Translations under genes and position numbers: made by a program
Notes under the pieces: model-generated
Databases searched by the model: none
What the model was told of the DNA's origin: nothing
The model's input: the letters and a program-made list of their open reading frames with translations, nothing else
Assembly (NCBI GenBank): GCA_949296425.1
Contig: CASFPN010000024.1
Coordinates: 7,071-71,070, forward strand
Origin: an uncultured bacterium
GTDB taxonomy: Bacteria > Cyanobacteriota > Vampirovibrionia > Gastranaerophilales > Gastranaerophilaceae
Reading direction: 5' to 3'
DNA: 64,000 nt
Shown: in pieces, positions 9,098-47,105 of the stretch
Numbering within the stretch: position 1 is the stretch's first letter
Layout of the letters: the number at the start of each line of letters is the position of its first letter

Positions 9098-9850
9098 ATG
9101 AAAAAACAAGGGTTTACTTTAGCGGAAGTGCTCATTACTTTGGGTATTATTGGTGTTGTAGCTGCATTAACTATTCCGTCTTTAGTTTCCAAGTATAGAA
9201 AACATGTAGTTGAAACTTCTCTAAAAAAATCATATTCCGTTTTATCCCAAATCCTTGAACGCTCAAAGGCTGACAACGGGGATGCTGTTAATTGGGATTG
9301 GAGTTCTTACACAGCCTACCAAAAAGATTCATCAGAACAATTTTTTCAAATATACTTTTACTCGTATATAAATATAACAGGCAGGGCAAAATCTGTTCAA
9401 AGCCCTAATCTATTGGATTATAAAATTTATACATCGGTTGACGATACATCGGGCAGTCCTAATTGGTTTTACTATAATGGCAACATGGCAGACTGGGTTG
9501 AACTTCCTGACGGAAGTGTTGTTTTATTTAATTATCAATACACGGGACTACAAAATTTATACGGCAATTTCACAGTAATTCTTCCGAGTTCTAAAAACAA
9601 AAAGAAATTAATAGTGGGTAAAGATGTTTTCGATTTTTCTTTACGTAATTACGGAAATAATATTGTTGTATCGCCATATAGCTGGCAAGATTGGACATGC
9701 AAAGATATAGATGACAACAAGGAAAATTATTTACGGGCTTGCAAAGGAGAAGTTACAAGCGGTGCAGGTATCAATTCCGGCAACTATTGTACATCAATAA
9801 TTTACTGTAACGGTTGGAAAATTCCTGATGATTATCCGATTAGGCTTTAG
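9098..9850 (+). CDS. Type IV pilin-like protein (short leader)
   Basis: MKKQG|FTLAEVLITLGIIGVVAALTIP N-methylation motif with Glu+5; C-terminal Cys residues. Confidence 0.9.
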   Translation: MKKQGFTLAEVLITLGIIGVVAALTIPSLVSKYRKHVVETSLKKSYSVLSQILERSKADNGDAVNWDWSSYTAYQKDSSEQFFQIYFYSYINITGRAKSVQSPNLLDYKIYTSVDDTSGSPNWFYYNGNMADWVELPDGSVVLFNYQYTGLQNLYGNFTVILPSSKNKKKLIVGKDVFDFSLRNYGNNIVVSPYSWQDWTCKDIDDNKENYLRACKGEVTSGAGINSGNYCTSIIYCNGWKIPDDYPIRL

Positions 9851-15427: not shown

Positions 15428-15624
15428 AATAAAAAATAATAGCGAAATAAATATTTAAAGTCAATTACAAAAAGCCTTGTAAATAATCAAATAGCCCGCG
15501 TGGATAACCGCTTTTGGCAATGTTTCTTACAATAAATAAAGTACATAATCTAGTATTAGTTTGTTTTTTAAAAAAAATATTTTTGGGGTTTTTAGAAAAA
15601 AGCCCGCAACACAAGGAGGTAAAA

Positions 15625-17673
15625 ATGACTATTAAAAAACTGACTGTGGCAGCTGCAATTGCCGTTGGAATAGCAACGTGTTCCTTGAATCAGGCAATGG
15701 CGGCTTGTCCCTGCGCAGCACCGGAAACTCCGGCACCCTGTGCAGAACCCTTACCTGTAGTTACAGGACCGGCTTGTCCGTGTGAAACAACAAAACCTAA
15801 CACATGTACAAAATGCAAAAAAGCAATGCCTGACTGTGACTGCCAAAAACCCGATCCGTGCGAAGATCCTTGTAAAGACCCGTGCGATCCGTGCGAAAAA
15901 AAATCAGACTGCGGATGCCCTGATGAAATAAGCTGCGATGAACCGGCAGAACCGGCTTGCGCTATATGTCCTCAGACAGGCAAACCGGACAGAAAAGATA
16001 TGAAGCAGGTTTACGGTTACCCTAACGCTATTTACGGGACTAACAACTATGTAGGCCAGCCTGCAAACTCTATCTTTTCAACAGATACACCTATTGCAAG
16101 CACTCCAAGGGTACTTTCTTCAAACGTAAACGGTACAACAATATCTTCACAAGGGCAGGTAACAGGTGCAGCAACCGAAATGCCTTGTCTTAACGAAGCT
16201 CCTACCCGTCACAACGGCATTCCTATTGACAGAAACGAACGTTTAATGGACGGCAATAACTGCCCGATAGATTTCCAATCAACAAACTCTATTGATGCAG
16301 TTAGAAAATCTTTTGTACCGTATGAAATTCCTAATCAGATTATGCAGACAACAGGTGCTGCAGCAAACCTCGGCGGATGTCAATTTCCGGACGTCCCAAA
16401 CGGTTTCTGGGCAGCATGCGACATTGATAAATTAGCCATTAATGATGTTGTTGTCGGTTATCCCGACGGATATTTCAAACCAAACAGAAATATTTCACGT
16501 GCGGAATTTGCAACAATATTGGTTAAAGGTTTCAATCTTGACAAATGCGACATGCCCCGCGAAGGTCTTTTCAAAGACGTTCCGAAAAGCAACTGGGCTA
16601 ACGCAGCTATTGCAAAAGCCGTTGATGAAGACCTGTTAAAAGGTTACCCTGACGGCAACTTTAAACCAAACCACCCCGTAACAAGGGTTGAAGCTTTAAC
16701 AACAATTGCAAAAGGCATGACCTGTGACATTGACCAGTGCAAAGCTGACGAAATCTTAAGCAAATACGCAGACGGCGCTTCTATCCCGAACTGGGCAAGA
16801 ATACCGGTTGCTAAATCTCTTGAAAACGGTGCTTTAAAAGATATGCCTAATCCTAATATGATTATGCCTAACAAAGAAGCAAGCCGTGCAGAAGTAGCTT
16901 CAATGATGCAGACTGTTCGTGTAGCATTAGGTTATGATACTAACCCGAAAACTGCTAACAATATATGTCCTGCATGCCCTGTAAACAAAAACGCTTTTGT
17001 TGAACAGGAAGAAATCGTTAAAATCCCTACATTAAAAGTTAAGATGATCGACCAGTTAACGGCAAAATCATCCCACGTAGGACAATACTTCAGAGCAAAT
17101 ACTCTTGAAGACGTAACAATTAACGGTGTAACATATCCTTGCGGTTCAACCGTAACCGGTCAGGTTGTAGAAGTTATCAGACCGTCAGGATGCGACAAAG
17201 GTGCTTTGAAATTGTCATTCACAACAATCAAAAACGGCGACTGCAAAGCCCAGTTACCTAAACAAATTCTTCAGGCACAGGTTAACAAATCAAAACAGGT
17301 TAACCCTGTAGCAAGACTGGTTGAAATGCCGTTCACCCTTGCCGGTTCTTTAGTTGGTGTGGCAGGCAGAACAGTCGGCGGTGTTGTAACAAACCTCGGT
17401 AACGCTGTTGAAAACGTGTCTAATGATGCAGGTTATATGCTAGGTCACGTATTCCAGGGACAATTCGGCGCTGCTGCACGTAACTTAGGCGACGGCTTAT
17501 GGGAAACAGTTAAAGCACCGGTTGACGTTACAAGAACTGCTTTATCAGGTACTATGGGCTTGTTCCAGACTACAGGCGACGAATTTGCTTACCTTGTTGA
17601 CCCGCGCGGATATAAAATCTCCGCTGTAAATCCAAGAGAACACATTACTATTGCATTCGGCTGTTCAGAATAG
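15625..17673 (+). CDS. Cys/Pro-rich S-layer homology (SLH) domain protein
   Basis: AGGAGG RBS before ATG 15625; signal peptide; three SLH repeats (FPDVP..FWA..GYPDG.FKP...SRAE); Cys-rich N-terminus. Confidence 0.88.
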   Translation: MTIKKLTVAAAIAVGIATCSLNQAMAACPCAAPETPAPCAEPLPVVTGPACPCETTKPNTCTKCKKAMPDCDCQKPDPCEDPCKDPCDPCEKKSDCGCPDEISCDEPAEPACAICPQTGKPDRKDMKQVYGYPNAIYGTNNYVGQPANSIFSTDTPIASTPRVLSSNVNGTTISSQGQVTGAATEMPCLNEAPTRHNGIPIDRNERLMDGNNCPIDFQSTNSIDAVRKSFVPYEIPNQIMQTTGAAANLGGCQFPDVPNGFWAACDIDKLAINDVVVGYPDGYFKPNRNISRAEFATILVKGFNLDKCDMPREGLFKDVPKSNWANAAIAKAVDEDLLKGYPDGNFKPNHPVTRVEALTTIAKGMTCDIDQCKADEILSKYADGASIPNWARIPVAKSLENGALKDMPNPNMIMPNKEASRAEVASMMQTVRVALGYDTNPKTANNICPACPVNKNAFVEQEEIVKIPTLKVKMIDQLTAKSSHVGQYFRANTLEDVTINGVTYPCGSTVTGQVVEVIRPSGCDKGALKLSFTTIKNGDCKAQLPKQILQAQVNKSKQVNPVARLVEMPFTLAGSLVGVAGRTVGGVVTNLGNAVENVSNDAGYMLGHVFQGQFGAAARNLGDGLWETVKAPVDVTRTALSGTMGLFQTTGDEFAYLVDPRGYKISAVNPREHITIAFGCSE

Positions 17674-18437: not shown

Positions 18438-18731
18438 ATGAAAGAACTACGTGACCCCGCATTAGACTTGGAAATTGATTTTTCAAAAATTACACCTGTT
18501 AAGGATGTATGCGAAAATCTTATGTTATCAGAGGAGTTGTTAGAAAAGTACAAAATTGTTATTGACGAAAGCAAAATTGAACAGATTATCGCAGAAATTC
18601 CGGAAGAAAAACGTCACACATTAACTTTTGAAGAAAAACTTGAATATGTAAGAAAAATTCTTTCTTACGATGTGACAGAACCGATTAAAAACTTATTTGA
18701 CGATGTTTTATGTTTCGTAAGCAAACTTTAA
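18438..18731 (+). CDS. Hypothetical protein (97 aa)
   Basis: AGGAG RBS; followed by a terminator. Confidence 0.75.
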   Translation: MKELRDPALDLEIDFSKITPVKDVCENLMLSEELLEKYKIVIDESKIEQIIAEIPEEKRHTLTFEEKLEYVRKILSYDVTEPIKNLFDDVLCFVSKL

Positions 18732-18736
18732 CCAAT

Positions 18737-18770
18737 AAAAATAGGAGCTTTAAAAAGCTCCTATTTTTTT
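18737..18770. terminator. Bidirectional terminator
   Basis: AAAAATAGGAGCTT/AAGCTCCTATTTTT between convergent genes. Confidence 0.85.
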
Positions 18771-18786
18771 GTGCAATTTTGAATTA

Positions 18787-19720
18787 TTACAACCCCAAAA
18801 AATCATGCCAGTAATCACCGTCGCCGTCAGGGTTTTTGTTCATAACAGCATAAGGGGTGCAGCCATAACCGAGATAAATATCCGTACTTTCTTTTGAGGA
18901 CAAGGTACAAATTCTTGTATCATGGTCGCCTTCAGGAACAGGTTTTACATTGTTATCTTCTGTTATTTTAAAGGTATGAATATCATAACCGACTCTGTTC
19001 GGCCCTTTTTTAGGTCCGTTTATATCAACTATAAACCAGTGATAATTACCTATTAAAATACAGGTGCCGTCGTTAAGCATAAAAGCTTTTTCTGCGGAAA
19101 TAGCCCCTCGATGTATGTAACCGGCACCTGTTAAATTCTTCCATCCACTTCCACTAATTCCACATTTAGTGTTAATGTTATCTTTTTCACAAACAGTTCC
19201 AAGCATTATTTTTGCGTACGTTCTTGTTTGATTCATTAGGATTTCTGCTCTCTGAGAAACATCATTATCATATGAAAAATCATCATACGGAGATATTCCT
19301 TGTGCAACGAGCATTCGGGTTGCATTAGAAATACTGGAATATGCTTTTTTCAACTGCGATTCAAAAACCTTAGCACGGTGATGAGAGATTAAAGTAGGCA
19401 GAGTCATGGCTGCTACTACACCTATAATGCCGAGGGTGATTAAAACCTCTGCAAATGTAAACGCAGCTCGATGTTGCCTGTTCGGCAGGGCTACGTGCGT
19501 AGCACCCCTCTCCCTTAATCCCTCTCCCGAGAGAGGGAAAAGATTTACGATACTTGCTTCGCTTCTTTGCCTCTTGACATCTTTGCATCTAACAACGAGA
19601 TCCTGAAACAAGTTCAGAATGACGTAAATAGCTTGACCTCTTGACCTCCTGACATCTTGACCTCCGATTAGCAAGCAAGCCCCCCCCCCCGAAGTTACAT
19701 TTTTTAATAAATTTTTGCAT
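18787..19720 (-). CDS. Type IV pilin-like protein with long leader, frameshifted at a poly-G tract (putative phase-variable, OFF)
   Basis: RBS and ATG at 19720, 19 nt after the der stop; G11 tract from codon 11; body has AA|FTFAEVLITLGIIG and VDINGPKKGPN..G.D motifs; in frame with 10 G. Confidence 0.8.
19597..19623 (-). repeat. REP-like palindrome inside the pilin leader
   Basis: GTCATTCTGAACTTGTTTCAGGATCTC on the minus strand; related copies at 449-488, 29347-29403 and 50984-51050. Confidence 0.75.
19680..19690 (-). repeat. Poly-G tract (11 nt)
   Basis: C at 19680 plus ten C at 19681-19690 on the plus strand. Confidence 0.97.
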
Positions 19721-19738
19721 AATCTACCCCTTTCTTTT

Positions 19739-21070
19739 TTATTTCTTTTCTTTATCTGAACGCTCTCTCACCGAAAGCTTTATCGTAGTACCAAAAAATC
19801 CGAATGCTTCTCTCAATTTATTCTCAATATATCGTTTGTAATGGTCTTTCATTAAATCAGCATTGTTAGCAAAAATTACAATATGCGGCGGCTGAATACC
19901 TGTTTGCGTTACATACATAATTTTAAGCCTTTTACCCTTTGAAGACGCAGGCGGGTTAAGCATATAAGCTTCTTTTATGATTTTATTCAATAATCCTGTT
20001 GAAATTCGTTTTATACATTCGGCGTAAACTCTTTCAGCTTCTGTATATATATTTTGCAGCCTTTGTTTTGTCAGCGCTGATATATAAATTTTGGGAGCGT
20101 ATTCCAAAAACGGAATATCATTCGACAACTTTTTGTTATATTGATTTATCGTATTCGATTTTTTGTCTTCTATCAAATCCCATTTGTTAATCGCTATAAT
20201 CAAACCCTTTCCGGCTTCAGTTATTATTGATGCAATTTTTTTATCCTGATCAGAAATCCCTTCTTTTGCATCAATTACAAGAAGTGCGACATCGCAATCT
20301 CTGATTGAGCGTATAGCTCTGTCTACTGCAAATTTTTCAACCCCCCAATCAACTTTTGATTTTTTTCTTATGCCAGCAGTATCAACAATTACAAATTCTC
20401 TGTTATTGTAAATTATTGTACTGTCTATACTGTCACGGGTTGTACCTGAAATATCAGAAACTATCACTCTGTTTTCGTTTAACAGGGCATTAACTATTGA
20501 TGATTTCCCCGCATTAGGTCTGCCTACAATAGCAATTCTTATTGTTTTATCGTCTTTACGTTCAATATCACGCGAAAAATCTTCTGTAACCAAATCCAGC
20601 AAATCTCCAACTCCGCCGGAACCATGCAATGCAGAAATACCTATAGGATCACCTATTGCCAGCGAATAAAAATCATTCACCATCAATAAAGATTCAGGAT
20701 TGTCGGATTTATTCACGGCAAGAAAAACAGGCTTTCCAGATTGTCTTAAAATATTTGCAATATCATAGTCTACAGGATTCACACCTTCTTTGCCGTCAAC
20801 AATAAAAATTATTTTGTCTGCTTCTTCACAGGCAATTTTTGCCTGATCAAAAATAGAAATCATAATTTCATCTTCATCCCCCGGAACAATTCCGCCTGTG
20901 TCAATAACAGTAAAAATTTTGTTCTGCCATTCAACATCAAAATAAATTCTGTCACGTGTCACTCCCGGCAAATCATCAACAATAGAATTTCTTGAACCCA
21001 CTAAACGGTTTACAAATGTTGATTTGCCGACATTCGGTCGTCCTACTATTGCAACAACAGGTTTTCTCAT
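19739..21070 (-). CDS. der: Ribosome biogenesis GTPase Der/EngA
   Basis: Two GTPase domains (GRPNVGKS, GRPNAGKSS, DTGG, DTAG) plus a KH-like C-terminus; start MRKPVVAIVG at 21070. Confidence 0.97.
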   Translation of the reverse strand: MRKPVVAIVGRPNVGKSTFVNRLVGSRNSIVDDLPGVTRDRIYFDVEWQNKIFTVIDTGGIVPGDEDEIMISIFDQAKIACEEADKIIFIVDGKEGVNPVDYDIANILRQSGKPVFLAVNKSDNPESLLMVNDFYSLAIGDPIGISALHGSGGVGDLLDLVTEDFSRDIERKDDKTIRIAIVGRPNAGKSSIVNALLNENRVIVSDISGTTRDSIDSTIIYNNREFVIVDTAGIRKKSKVDWGVEKFAVDRAIRSIRDCDVALLVIDAKEGISDQDKKIASIITEAGKGLIIAINKWDLIEDKKSNTINQYNKKLSNDIPFLEYAPKIYISALTKQRLQNIYTEAERVYAECIKRISTGLLNKIIKEAYMLNPPASSKGKRLKIMYVTQTGIQPPHIVIFANNADLMKDHYKRYIENKLREAFGFFGTTIKLSVRERSDKEKK

Positions 21071-21170
21071 AAATTTATTATACCATATAAAAAAAGTAAA
21101 AACACTTGAAATTAAAAAAAGTTCAAATATAGCTATTGCTTTTTTAAGCACGATTATTTAAAATATTCTT

Positions 21171-29907: not shown

Positions 29908-30651
29908 TTATTTACATTTCGTTTTTGTTTTCCACCCGAGACCTGAGCATTTACGATAATCTAAATTTTCATTATACAAAACCCATGCTGTACAGCCATT
30001 ATATTTGTTAGATTTAAAACAAGTAGTTTCAAAAGGGCATGCTGTATCTTCCGGCGTACCATATGGAATAATCCCGTATTTAGTTAAAGCAAATTCGAAA
30101 ATATCAACGCCATATTGATTAGGCCGACGGTTACCGTTTGTATCAACAATTATCCATGCACAAACAGATGCAAGATGTTTTGTATTCCCCCTATTATTTG
30201 TACATTCACCGCTTAACCCCGCAAAACCTAATGCCGTCCCATCATTTAGTACAATCTTTCCGACATCCTGCCTGGTGTCAACATTGCTGCCAGGAGAAAA
30301 ACAACCTTTACTTACTCCGCAATTTTTTACTGTACGCATATATATGGCAAATAAATTTGCGAGATTGACAGAACTTTTTTTCCCTTCTTCAGTCGGAACT
30401 CCTGGAGTTCCTCCATTTGCAGATACAATCCCCCAGTTTGTTGGATCTCCGTATTTAGCGCTAAGCATAAAATACGCCTGTGAAAGAGAAGAATAAACTT
30501 TTTTTAATCTGCTTACAGTATCTTTGTCACTTTTATTTTGAATAAGAGAAGGCATTGTCATAGCAGCAACAATTCCGATAATACCTAATGTTATTAAGAT
30601 TTCTGCAAGAGTAAAGCCACATTTTAGTTTTGCCGGTTTTATAAAATTCAT
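29908..30651 (-). CDS. Type IV pilin-like protein (short leader)
   Basis: KLKCG|FTLAEILITLGIIGIVAAMTMP; VDTNGNRRPNQYGVDIF; Cys-rich C-terminus. Confidence 0.9.
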   Translation of the reverse strand: MNFIKPAKLKCGFTLAEILITLGIIGIVAAMTMPSLIQNKSDKDTVSRLKKVYSSLSQAYFMLSAKYGDPTNWGIVSANGGTPGVPTEEGKKSSVNLANLFAIYMRTVKNCGVSKGCFSPGSNVDTRQDVGKIVLNDGTALGFAGLSGECTNNRGNTKHLASVCAWIIVDTNGNRRPNQYGVDIFEFALTKYGIIPYGTPEDTACPFETTCFKSNKYNGCTAWVLYNENLDYRKCSGLGWKTKTKCK

Positions 30652-46275: not shown

Positions 46276-47105
46276 TTATGGAAGGCTTTCCCAGTAACCT
46301 TTTGTTTCATCATCGGGATTTTTGTCAATAACAGCATAATGAGCACAGCCAAAGCCGTTTGCCGACTGATTTGAATAAATAGAACAAGGATAACCGGCTA
46401 TTTCTGGATATTCTATATTTCCGTTTTCCAATTCATCATCCGTATAATGACGTGTTTGCTCAAACGGTTTAAGAATGTCATTTTCATCTATATAAAAGAA
46501 AAATATATCATGCCCGAGTAGGTTCGGCCTTTTAGCACCGTTTATATCAACTGTGAGAATTATATAATAACCGTTAATTGTTACCTCAAAGCACATACCG
46601 TTTGCAAGTGCTTTTTCAGGCTCGGTACTGCCTGAGTATAAAACATTTGCTTGTGCAGATTTGTTGTAATTCAGTGTTTTATTTTTATAATTGCATTCTC
46701 CAATTACTTTTAGTTTAGAATATTTATAAAATTTTTCGTAAAATTCATCAGCCTTTGGATATTTACCTGTACTTTGATCATATATTGTATAAATTGCTCT
46801 TAAATCTCCGCCTTCTTCTTGACGCAGATTCATAACCCCCTGGCTAAGAATAGAAAAAGCTGCTTTAAAAGCTGTTCCAAGCTGCTTATTTTGAATTTTA
46901 TTTATCAAGACCGGCATTGTCATCGCCGCAACCACACCTATAATACCGAGAGTGATTAAAACTTCAGCTAACGTGAATGCGTATTTACGTTGACAGACCG
47001 GCAGGTCTACGTGCGCAGCATCTCCAGTCTTCCTGCAGTCTTTGCATCCTGCGGAGCCTAAAGTGCCCCCCCCCCGAAGATCTGATTTCCTAATATCTTG
47101 TTCAT
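46276..47105 (-). CDS. Type IV pilin-like protein with long leader, frameshifted at a poly-G tract (putative phase-variable, OFF)
   Basis: AAGGAG RBS and ATG 47105; G10 tract from codon 11 gives MNKILGNQIFGGGAL-stop; 11 G joins YA|FTLAEVLITLGIIG; VDINGAKRPN..G.DIF. Confidence 0.82.
47066..47075 (-). repeat. Poly-G tract (10 nt)
   Basis: Ten C at 47066-47075 on the plus strand. Confidence 0.97.

Follow-up and report, generated by a model that had tools for sequence, protein, structure and literature searches.

A poly-G run as a probable slipped-strand switch in the leader of a type IV pilin-like gene of Gastranaerophilales, and its many relatives in the same genome

Background

On the minus strand of a 64,000-nucleotide (nt) stretch of DNA from an uncultured human-gut bacterium of the Gastranaerophilaceae (GenBank assembly GCA_949296425.1, contig CASFPN010000024.1, positions 7,071 to 71,070; the whole stretch is called the window below), a pilin-like gene stands behind der, and between its start codon and its body there is a run of 11 G that leaves the two in different frames. 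The locus raises a simple question: is such a gene broken, wrongly assembled, read by some form of recoding or a second start codon, or is it switched by changes in the length of the run? We consider the last answer the probable one. Precisely, the G run would be a slipped-strand (replication slippage) contingency switch in the leader coding region of a type IV pilin-like gene, and about 66 pilin-like genes of this genome are arranged in the same way; most species of the genus have comparable numbers.

Gastranaerophilales, which are related to cyanobacteria but non-photosynthetic, are common in the guts of humans and animals and are uncultured; to our knowledge almost nothing is known about their contact with the host. 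A literature search for homopolymer switches in Melainabacteria or Gastranaerophilales returned no paper. The type of switch is known from pathogens; as far as we found, it is unpublished for Gastranaerophilales, and it is remarkable here in its scale and uniformity.

The run and its reading frames

The original prediction, made from the letters alone, had placed a ribosome-binding site (RBS), an ATG at 19720, the peptide MQKFIKKCNF and then 11 G directly after the stop of der. We re-read these coordinates on the minus strand and they are exact. The parts of the locus, together with a second locus of the same design in the window, are the following.

19739..21151, minus strand: der (EngA GTPase; two Pfam MMR_HSR1 domains and KH_dom-like, E 6e-61)
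19727..19734, minus strand: Shine-Dalgarno-like AAAGGGG, 6 nt ahead of the ATG, by direct reading of the sequence
19691..19720, minus strand: first part of the leader, the ATG (19720-19718) and nine codons, MQKFIKKCNF, by sequence and open reading frame (ORF) reading
19680..19690, minus strand: G11 homopolymer, the proposed slippage switch (C11 on the plus strand), which begins 30 nt after the ATG
19589..19720, minus strand: 43-codon ORF from the ATG, the OFF state as assembled, by ORF reading
19462..19679, minus strand: second part of the leader, open in the pilin frame, with a TTG, 8-nt tandem units and copies of a palindromic repeat
18787..19461, minus strand: mature pilin-like protein of 224 amino acids (aa) plus stop, starting FTFAEVLITLGIIGVVAAM, from Pfam N_methyl, the ratio of nonsynonymous to synonymous substitution rates (dN/dS) and an AlphaFold2 (AF2) model
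46276..47105, minus strand: second switch (locus 2), with RBS, ATG at 47105, MNKILGNQIF, G10 at 47075-47066 and a pilin-like ORF

The pilin-like frame, 18787..19674 (295 codons), is offset by one base from the frame of the ATG. When we edited the run in silico, G10 gave a product of 310 aa, G13 one of 311 aa and G7 one of 309 aa, through an 86-aa leader into FTFAEVLITLGIIG, while G8, G9, G11 and G12 all gave a premature stop. Both earlier statements about the frames, namely a stop after 43 codons as sequenced and a junction of leader and pilin frame at 10 or 13 G, were thus reproduced. As in contingency loci, a homopolymer of at least about 8 stands in the 5′ coding region and the repeat number sets the frame. 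Under the proposed switch, translation would begin at the RBS and ATG at 19720, and the number of Gs would decide whether ribosomes reach the pilin frame: with G11 they would stop after 43 codons (OFF), and with G10 or G13 they would make a prepilin-like protein of 310 or 311 aa, presumably cut by the prepilin peptidase before FTFAEV. The second switch of the window is OFF as assembled, and G11 would yield 276 aa.

The der stop (19741-19739) lies 18 nt upstream of the leader ATG. A promoter and terminator scan of the minus strand predicted neither between the two, so co-transcription of der and the pilin leader is likely. The second part of the leader contains the TTG, in the pilin frame, at 19674-19672 and, at 19632-19664, about four copies of an 8-nt tandem unit, CTTGACCT on the plus strand. 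An Rfam search over 18600-19900 returned sub-threshold chance matches only.

A family of runs in the genome

We counted the G and C runs in the whole genome to which the window belongs (G000; 2.0 Mb, 46 contigs, 34.7% GC). Runs of lengths 5 to 12 occur 404, 47, 7, 4, 5, 74, 7 and 4 times, a bimodal distribution with a gap at lengths 7-9. Those of at least 10 number 85, compared with 0.08 expected in the whole genome under a model of independent bases, and chance is therefore excluded.

Pilin-like N-termini of the FTLAEVLITLGIIG type were found in 88 genes of the genome, and 66 of them have, upstream of the N-terminus, a run of at least 9 behind which the pilin frame stays open. The open frame was a selection criterion in this case, and nearly all the runs upstream of pilin N-termini showed it. 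The run of the 66 paralogues comes about 28-30 nt behind the start codon. Their RBS and ATG mostly lie 25-33 nt upstream of it, the run in the mRNA is made of G in 44 genes and of C in 22, and the ORF of the OFF state has 14-30 codons, mostly 15-17. Repeats far above the compositional expectation and concentrated in surface-protein genes (66 of the 85 runs in pilin-like leaders) are what is seen in contingency loci. The runs are not peculiar to this species: runs of G10 or longer are present in 58 of 60 species of the genus that were scanned, with 2 to 250 matches to the G10 pattern per genome. We propose that the usual G10 or C10 is the OFF state throughout the family and that one extra base would turn a copy ON, so that most copies would be silent in most cells and a changing minority expressed.

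About 15 paralogues without a run have ordinary leaders of 4-12 aa, and these unswitched copies may be constitutive components of the pilus. Two run-less paralogues lie in the window, at 9098-9850 on the plus strand (MKKQG|FTLAEV) and at 29908-30651 on the minus strand (MNFIKPAKLKCG|FTLAEI).

As for the runs outside pilin-like genes, a G10 at C6:17431 (contig:position, here and below) stands near the 5′ end of a gene with a HipA_C kinase domain (E 3e-51), and others lie ahead of a 398-aa multi-pass membrane protein (C17:36597) and of proteins without a Pfam match. Phase variation may thus extend to a few non-pilin genes, among them one for a kinase of toxin-antitoxin type.

The contigs of the assembly often end at a run cassette or within about 1.5 kb of one (C1:878, C3:149, C5:149, C17:172, C29:197, C42:80557), probably because the leader module behind the run is a dispersed repeat of 150 nt with 90-98% identity. 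The pilin repertoire is therefore likely to be under-assembled.

Length variation between assemblies

If the runs slip, their length should differ between populations. We considered other public assemblies of the species with identical neighbouring housekeeping proteins, and the lengths are assembly-level consensus lengths. The 39 observations at 8 loci gave 32 G10 and 7 G11 and no other length, after leaving out one low-coverage contig, L069, whose end is made of G-rich junk.

C42:72628 has G11 (ON, 281 aa) in this genome and in a Brazilian sample and G10 in two other samples; C20:37726 has G11 in this genome and G10 in another sample. At both of these sister loci, at least one other assembly matches this genome over about 1-1.3 kb except for a single G, which toggles the gene between ON and OFF. 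Likewise, C22:11367 has G11 once and G10 twice, and C41:51574 has G10 seven times and G11 once. The assembly ERZ16268292 is 100% identical to this genome over the window locus (locus 1) and over C23:23107 and has the same tract and flanks at locus 2. It nevertheless differs by one G at both of the G11 sister loci examined, which points to fast switching, as far as consensus sequences can tell.

The frame can also change beside the run. At C23:23107 the length is G10 everywhere, and CCC or CCCC just before the run toggles the frame (2 ON, 4 OFF); C42:63262 and C14:1547 are ON at length 10 through a flanking change, i.e. an extra base or a 2-nt deletion beside the run. Since these ON alleles keep length 10, the run tends to stay at 10 whatever the state of the gene. 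The second switch of the window has G10 in 7 of 7 clean assemblies of the species and is OFF everywhere it was seen. Full-length in-frame forms, such as MKVLRFIKQLGGGG..., are present in public protein sets (P0006, P0024, P0026, P0028, P0035, P0065).

In the comparison of C22:11337-12266 with L072 and L073 there is, besides the one G, a 40-nt insertion in one and a 53-nt deletion in the other, both in the repeat part of the leader. The net change in length, including the missing G, is a multiple of three both times (+39 and -54); this could be a coincidence or an effect of repeat assembly.

It is extremely improbable that the runs are sequencing or assembly artefacts at a homopolymer. Poly-G is error-prone on two-colour Illumina machines, and L069 (BRZ_IN NODE_18164, coverage 3.6) ends in G-rich junk (…GGGGGGGTGTGTTCATCGGGGGGG…G13) beside the locus-2 run, an artefact of sequencing or assembly that is typical of poly-G and a warning for low-coverage contigs. 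However, the same lengths were obtained from independent samples and assemblers (MEGAHIT-style k127/k87 names, SPAdes NODE names, other scaffolders), and the 85 runs have conserved flanks inside one gene family. The same out-of-frame design came from different assembly programs and is therefore not an assembly slip.

Frame rule and translation start

We considered 143 loci, of which 66 were from this genome, 32 from the fetched regions of each of two other species and 13 from further species or unrelated metagenome contigs. A length of exactly 10 is found in 57 of the 66 runs of this genome, and 51 of the 66 combine it with a frame that lacks one base. The same state was found in 26/32 and 28/32 loci of the two other species, which have one in-frame G11 each, and in 11/13 of the remaining loci, with one in-frame C11. 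Overall, 116 of the 143 loci (81%) have length 10 and are one base short, while 10 (7%) are in frame (ON), most with length 11; seven of the in-frame loci belong to this genome, three of them with G11. The rule that one more base is needed is common to G-type and C-type runs and to short and long leaders. Two scans of metagenome contigs for the cassette returned 0 and 9 contigs, numbers from which no distribution of lengths could be drawn.

So regular an offset invites another explanation, in which the G10 or C10 is itself functional and the base is supplied by RNA polymerase slippage or by a -1 ribosomal shift (on GGG GGG GGG or CCC CCC CCC), with all copies expressed at a low level. We regard such a programmed frameshift as unlikely. 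The shared length and offset in 81% of the loci, in several species and with both types of run, are what it predicts, as are the G10, one base short, of the window gene's orthologues in two other species and the G10 of loci 1 and 2 in nearly all samples; moreover, a run longer than the RNA-DNA hybrid would allow RNA polymerase to add one G or C. There is also a precedent, since conserved poly-A frameshifts in Buchnera and Blochmannia are reportedly rescued by transcriptional slippage, according to work of Tamas and colleagues in 2008 and of Wernegreen and colleagues in 2010. On the other hand, the consensus differences between G10 and G11 in near-identical populations mean that the DNA itself switches, and a mechanism that adds one base would not rescue the G11 of the window, which needs -1. 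No downstream stimulatory structure is evident, and tRNA-Gly(CCC) and tRNA-Pro(GGG) are both present, so there are no hungry codons. The uniform G10 could be explained by the fact that a population consensus always reports the mutational mode, and the analogous G-tract of Bifidobacterium breve pili was attributed to replication slippage (PMC9187656). We also rejected an unusual tRNA or missing decoders of GGG and CCC as the cause of a frameshift, the tRNA set being ordinary.

With regard to the start of translation, 29 of the 66 leaders have no ATG, GTG or TTG between the run and the mature N-terminus, and only 3 of the 66 have a start codon within 15 nt after the run. Among the 40 leaders of at least 40 codons, none of the 80 alternative frames is open (mean 6.2 stops). 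Translation must therefore start upstream of the run. A comparison of two orthologous leaders gave a dN/dS of 0.54 for the pilin frame and values over 2.5 for both other frames. The median length of the leader behind the run is 59 codons in the family.

These figures bear on a caveat of the original prediction, by which the G run of the window could act as an RBS for the TTG at 19674. Such a Shine-Dalgarno-like site would give a 295-aa precursor at any tract length and so bypass the switch. A G run is able to pair with the anti-Shine-Dalgarno sequence, and the TTG in the pilin frame follows the run at a distance of 5 nt in the window and of 7 nt in four other samples. The caveat stands for the window copy alone; with a start codon so close to the run at only 3 of 66 loci, it is not the general design and the TTG looks incidental. 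In addition, a well-spaced RBS and ATG lie upstream, as in all the paralogues, and the 295-aa product would be without the Lys-rich N-terminus of the other leaders. For these reasons we hold a bypass of the switch to be quite unlikely even at this copy.

Protein and pilus machinery

The prepilin-type N-terminus of the window protein reads AA|FTFAEVLITLGIIGVVAAM, with Ala rather than Gly at position -1. The Pfam N_methyl score is 20.7 bits at the window locus (cut-off 21.2) and 23.5 bits at locus 2, where TIGR02532 gives 20.5 (cut-off 16.3). The AF2 model of the mature part, built from 46 homologues, is confident, with a pLDDT of 88 and a pTM of 0.83, and consists of an N-terminal helix (3-53) and a five-stranded beta sheet. 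A Foldseek search of this model against the PDB gave no match with E below 0.2, and the term pilin-like therefore rests on the N-terminal motif and the genomic context rather than on the fold. The genome encodes a PilD-like prepilin peptidase (A24_N_bact and Peptidase_A24), a PilB-like ATPase (T2SSE and MshEN, 669 aa) and two PilT-like T2SSE ATPases, one of which was scanned against Pfam.

At 15514-17673 on the plus strand, the window also encodes a 719-aa protein rich in Cys and Pro, with repeats of S-layer-homology type. PF00395 SLH is recorded for the identical gene in strain L014. The protein fits the diderm envelope of the lineage.

The window locus in other strains and species

The original prediction had proposed to compare strains and metagenome-assembled genomes for differences in tract length. 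The polymorphism of G10 and G11 was found at the sister loci described above. At the window locus the two lengths exist as well, accompanied by substitutions and small insertions or deletions. The window and the near-identical ERZ16268292 have G11+CTTGCTTGC, one base too many, and four other samples with an identical der have G10+CACTCGCTTGC, the canonical state of one base short. The G11 and G10 alleles are 2-7% diverged in the 5′ half and identical in the 3′ 400 nt. Since the changes are clustered in the diverged half, a conversion patch is suggested rather than a simple slip.

Strain L014 (96% identical) has G10 and one 8-nt unit fewer in the array at 19632-19664, which shifts the frame by 2; the array may be a second hypermutable element. 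Of 60 genomes from the genus that were searched for orthologues, 3 had relatives of the window pilin. In two other species the orthologues (L011 and L012) have G10 and are one base short; in a third (59% identity) the leader is of C type and its C11 is in frame. All the strains and the three other species have an intact mature part, which shows a dN/dS of 0.11-0.18 against strains and orthologues and is under purifying selection. A mature part that is intact everywhere and so constrained belongs to a working gene, either silent in the majority of cells or read by another route.

The flanks of the run and the mosaic leaders

Read on the G strand, the flanks of the run are TC...CA in either orientation of the gene, in 34 of the 44 G-type and 16 of the 22 C-type genes of this genome. 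An NGCT follows the run on the same strand at +8 in this species, at +9 in G031 and at +10 in G032, and its spacing is equal in both gene orientations within G000 and G032, while the seven C-type loci of G031 scatter from +8 to +10. The two orientations encode unrelated peptides, so the flank motif is a feature of the DNA and not of the protein. Examples in the window are at 19676-19693 and 47061-47078.

The paralogues are also mosaics. In 98 pairs the first 120 nt after the run are at least 88% identical, while the bodies do not rise above the background of similarity and the stretch of 30 nt upstream of the run is 68% alike, and ungapped homology from the 3′ side of the run mostly stops 0-8 nt beyond it on the 5′ side. 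Conversely, some bodies that are 90-99% identical have leaders unrelated to each other, in some cases with a G run in one and a C run in the other. Such shuffling of leaders and bodies is seen at C4:17690 (C10) and C38:14840 (G10), and at C15:22962, C27:26479 and C27:31884.

Recombination or gene conversion bounded at the run would explain the flank motif and the mosaics, and perhaps the uniform length. The run may then be the core of a dedicated DNA cassette, its length held at 10 through gene conversion or recombination, or through recognition by a protein; instead of this, or together with it, RNA polymerase slippage could decode the offset of one base, with about 60 pilins all made at a low level. 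We put this forward as a tentative account with a minor share of the probability. An inversion between AGCT sites flanking the run, considered as a source of the C-type leaders, was dropped, the inverted repeat being only 4 bp.

Balance of the evidence

Several observations weigh against a classical slippage switch. At the window locus none of seven assemblies is in frame (G11 in 2, G10 in 5), so that all are OFF; the difference between G11 and G10 there is part of a small cluster of changes and not a clean slip; and the frame of L014 is not restored by any tract length. In the three bulk-sampled genomes 117 of 130 pilin-linked runs are 10 long, a distribution sharper than in known contingency sets, and the almost invariable need of one more base fits programmed recoding equally well. 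Classical slippage does not explain the near-uniform G10, the motif on the G strand or the mosaic leaders. Further, the 86-aa leader of the ON form is outside the known range of prepilins, whose positively charged leaders are short (about 5-30 residues), and the genome has MutS and MutL (MutS2 too), unlike Campylobacter and Helicobacter. With MutS, MutS2 and MutL present, the tracts would have to be mutable despite mismatch repair, as the tracts of Neisseria are.

The OFF state in seven of seven assemblies, and an L014 allele out of frame at every tract length, are also what one would see in a decaying pseudogene in which the run is the site of the first lesion. This explanation is very improbable given that the mature part is intact in all the strains and in three other species, with the low dN/dS given above, and that the leader remains open in the pilin frame.

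The slipped-strand switch remains our preferred explanation, and the phase variation of the original prediction is supported at the level of the family, where single-G ON/OFF alleles are clean at sister loci; the support is weaker at the window tract, with its neighbouring changes and without an in-frame allele. The length would change reversibly and at a high rate by replication slippage, with G10 as the mutational mode. If ON lies one base above this mode, a given gene would be ON in only a small and short-lived minority of cells, and each cell would express a few of the about 60 genes. A metagenome consensus, which reports the mode of a population, should be sharper than a set of isolates.

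If confirmed, this would be among the largest homopolymer contingency sets known to us: the 2 Mb of this genome contain 85 runs, and in a sister species the G10 pattern has up to 250 matches. It would provide a combinatorial and stochastic variation of pilus subunits or adhesins, with a bearing on evasion of the immune system (immunoglobulin A) or of phages and on the choice of niche. Annotation is affected too: gene callers truncate or mis-start most of the switched pilin-like genes. The near-perfect rule of G10 as OFF and G11 as ON would also allow a clean test, in a natural system, of what determines the modal length of a repeat.

Comparison with known systems

A close design is that of pilC1 and pilC2 of Neisseria gonorrhoeae and N. 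meningitidis, in which Jonsson and colleagues, in 1991, reportedly described a poly-G run in the region coding for the signal peptide. In both systems only a few codons separate the start from the G run, which falls within the targeting peptide that is cleaved from a pilus-associated protein, and the ON/OFF control, here as proposed, works on translation through a shift of frame. Neisseria has one or two such genes, for tip adhesins with a Sec signal, whereas here there are about 66 pilin-like subunit paralogues per genome, the leader is of class III (prepilin) and often of 40-200 codons, and length 10 is nearly uniform.

The opa family of Neisseria carries CTCTT repeats in the region coding for the leader peptide. 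Like the genes described here, it is a dispersed multigene family of surface proteins in which each copy has its own leader switch, most copies are OFF and the copies are mosaic, in Neisseria through recombination. It differs in its pentamers of variable number, its 4-12 copies and its outer-membrane products, compared with homopolymers on pilin-like proteins in this case.

The poly-A cases of Buchnera and Blochmannia share with ours a homopolymer frameshift retained across species. Those are A/T runs in degenerating housekeeping genes, while here we have G/C runs in an expanding family of surface proteins and a G10/G11 polymorphism at the level of the DNA.

Campylobacter jejuni is alike in its low-GC genome, many G/C runs, dearth of short runs, sharp mode and single-unit changes (PMC3401435). 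Its modal length is 9, with few runs of G5-G8. The mutations of G8 are mainly insertions and those of G11 mainly deletions, and in the authors' view the mode results from an insertion bias in short runs and a deletion bias in long ones (PMC3401435). It differs in having 11-29 runs with mode 9, in varied surface-modification genes and without MutSL, whereas the genome described here has 85, with mode 10 and almost all of them in a single protein family, and in it MutS and MutL are present and ON is almost always at the mode plus one.

Finally, in Bifidobacterium breve UCC2003 replication slippage in the G-tracts of bbr_0113 and bbr_1889 was described, and the ON length was enriched in mice (PMC9187656). 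That organism is also a gut commensal, and in its genes, too, a short upstream ORF with the start and the secretion signal is split from the pilin body by an intragenic G-tract (PMC9187656). The pili of B. breve are sortase-dependent (LPXTG) and the loci are two, whereas in this member of the Gastranaerophilales the proteins are type IV pilin-like, the loci are dozens and their flanks are conserved.

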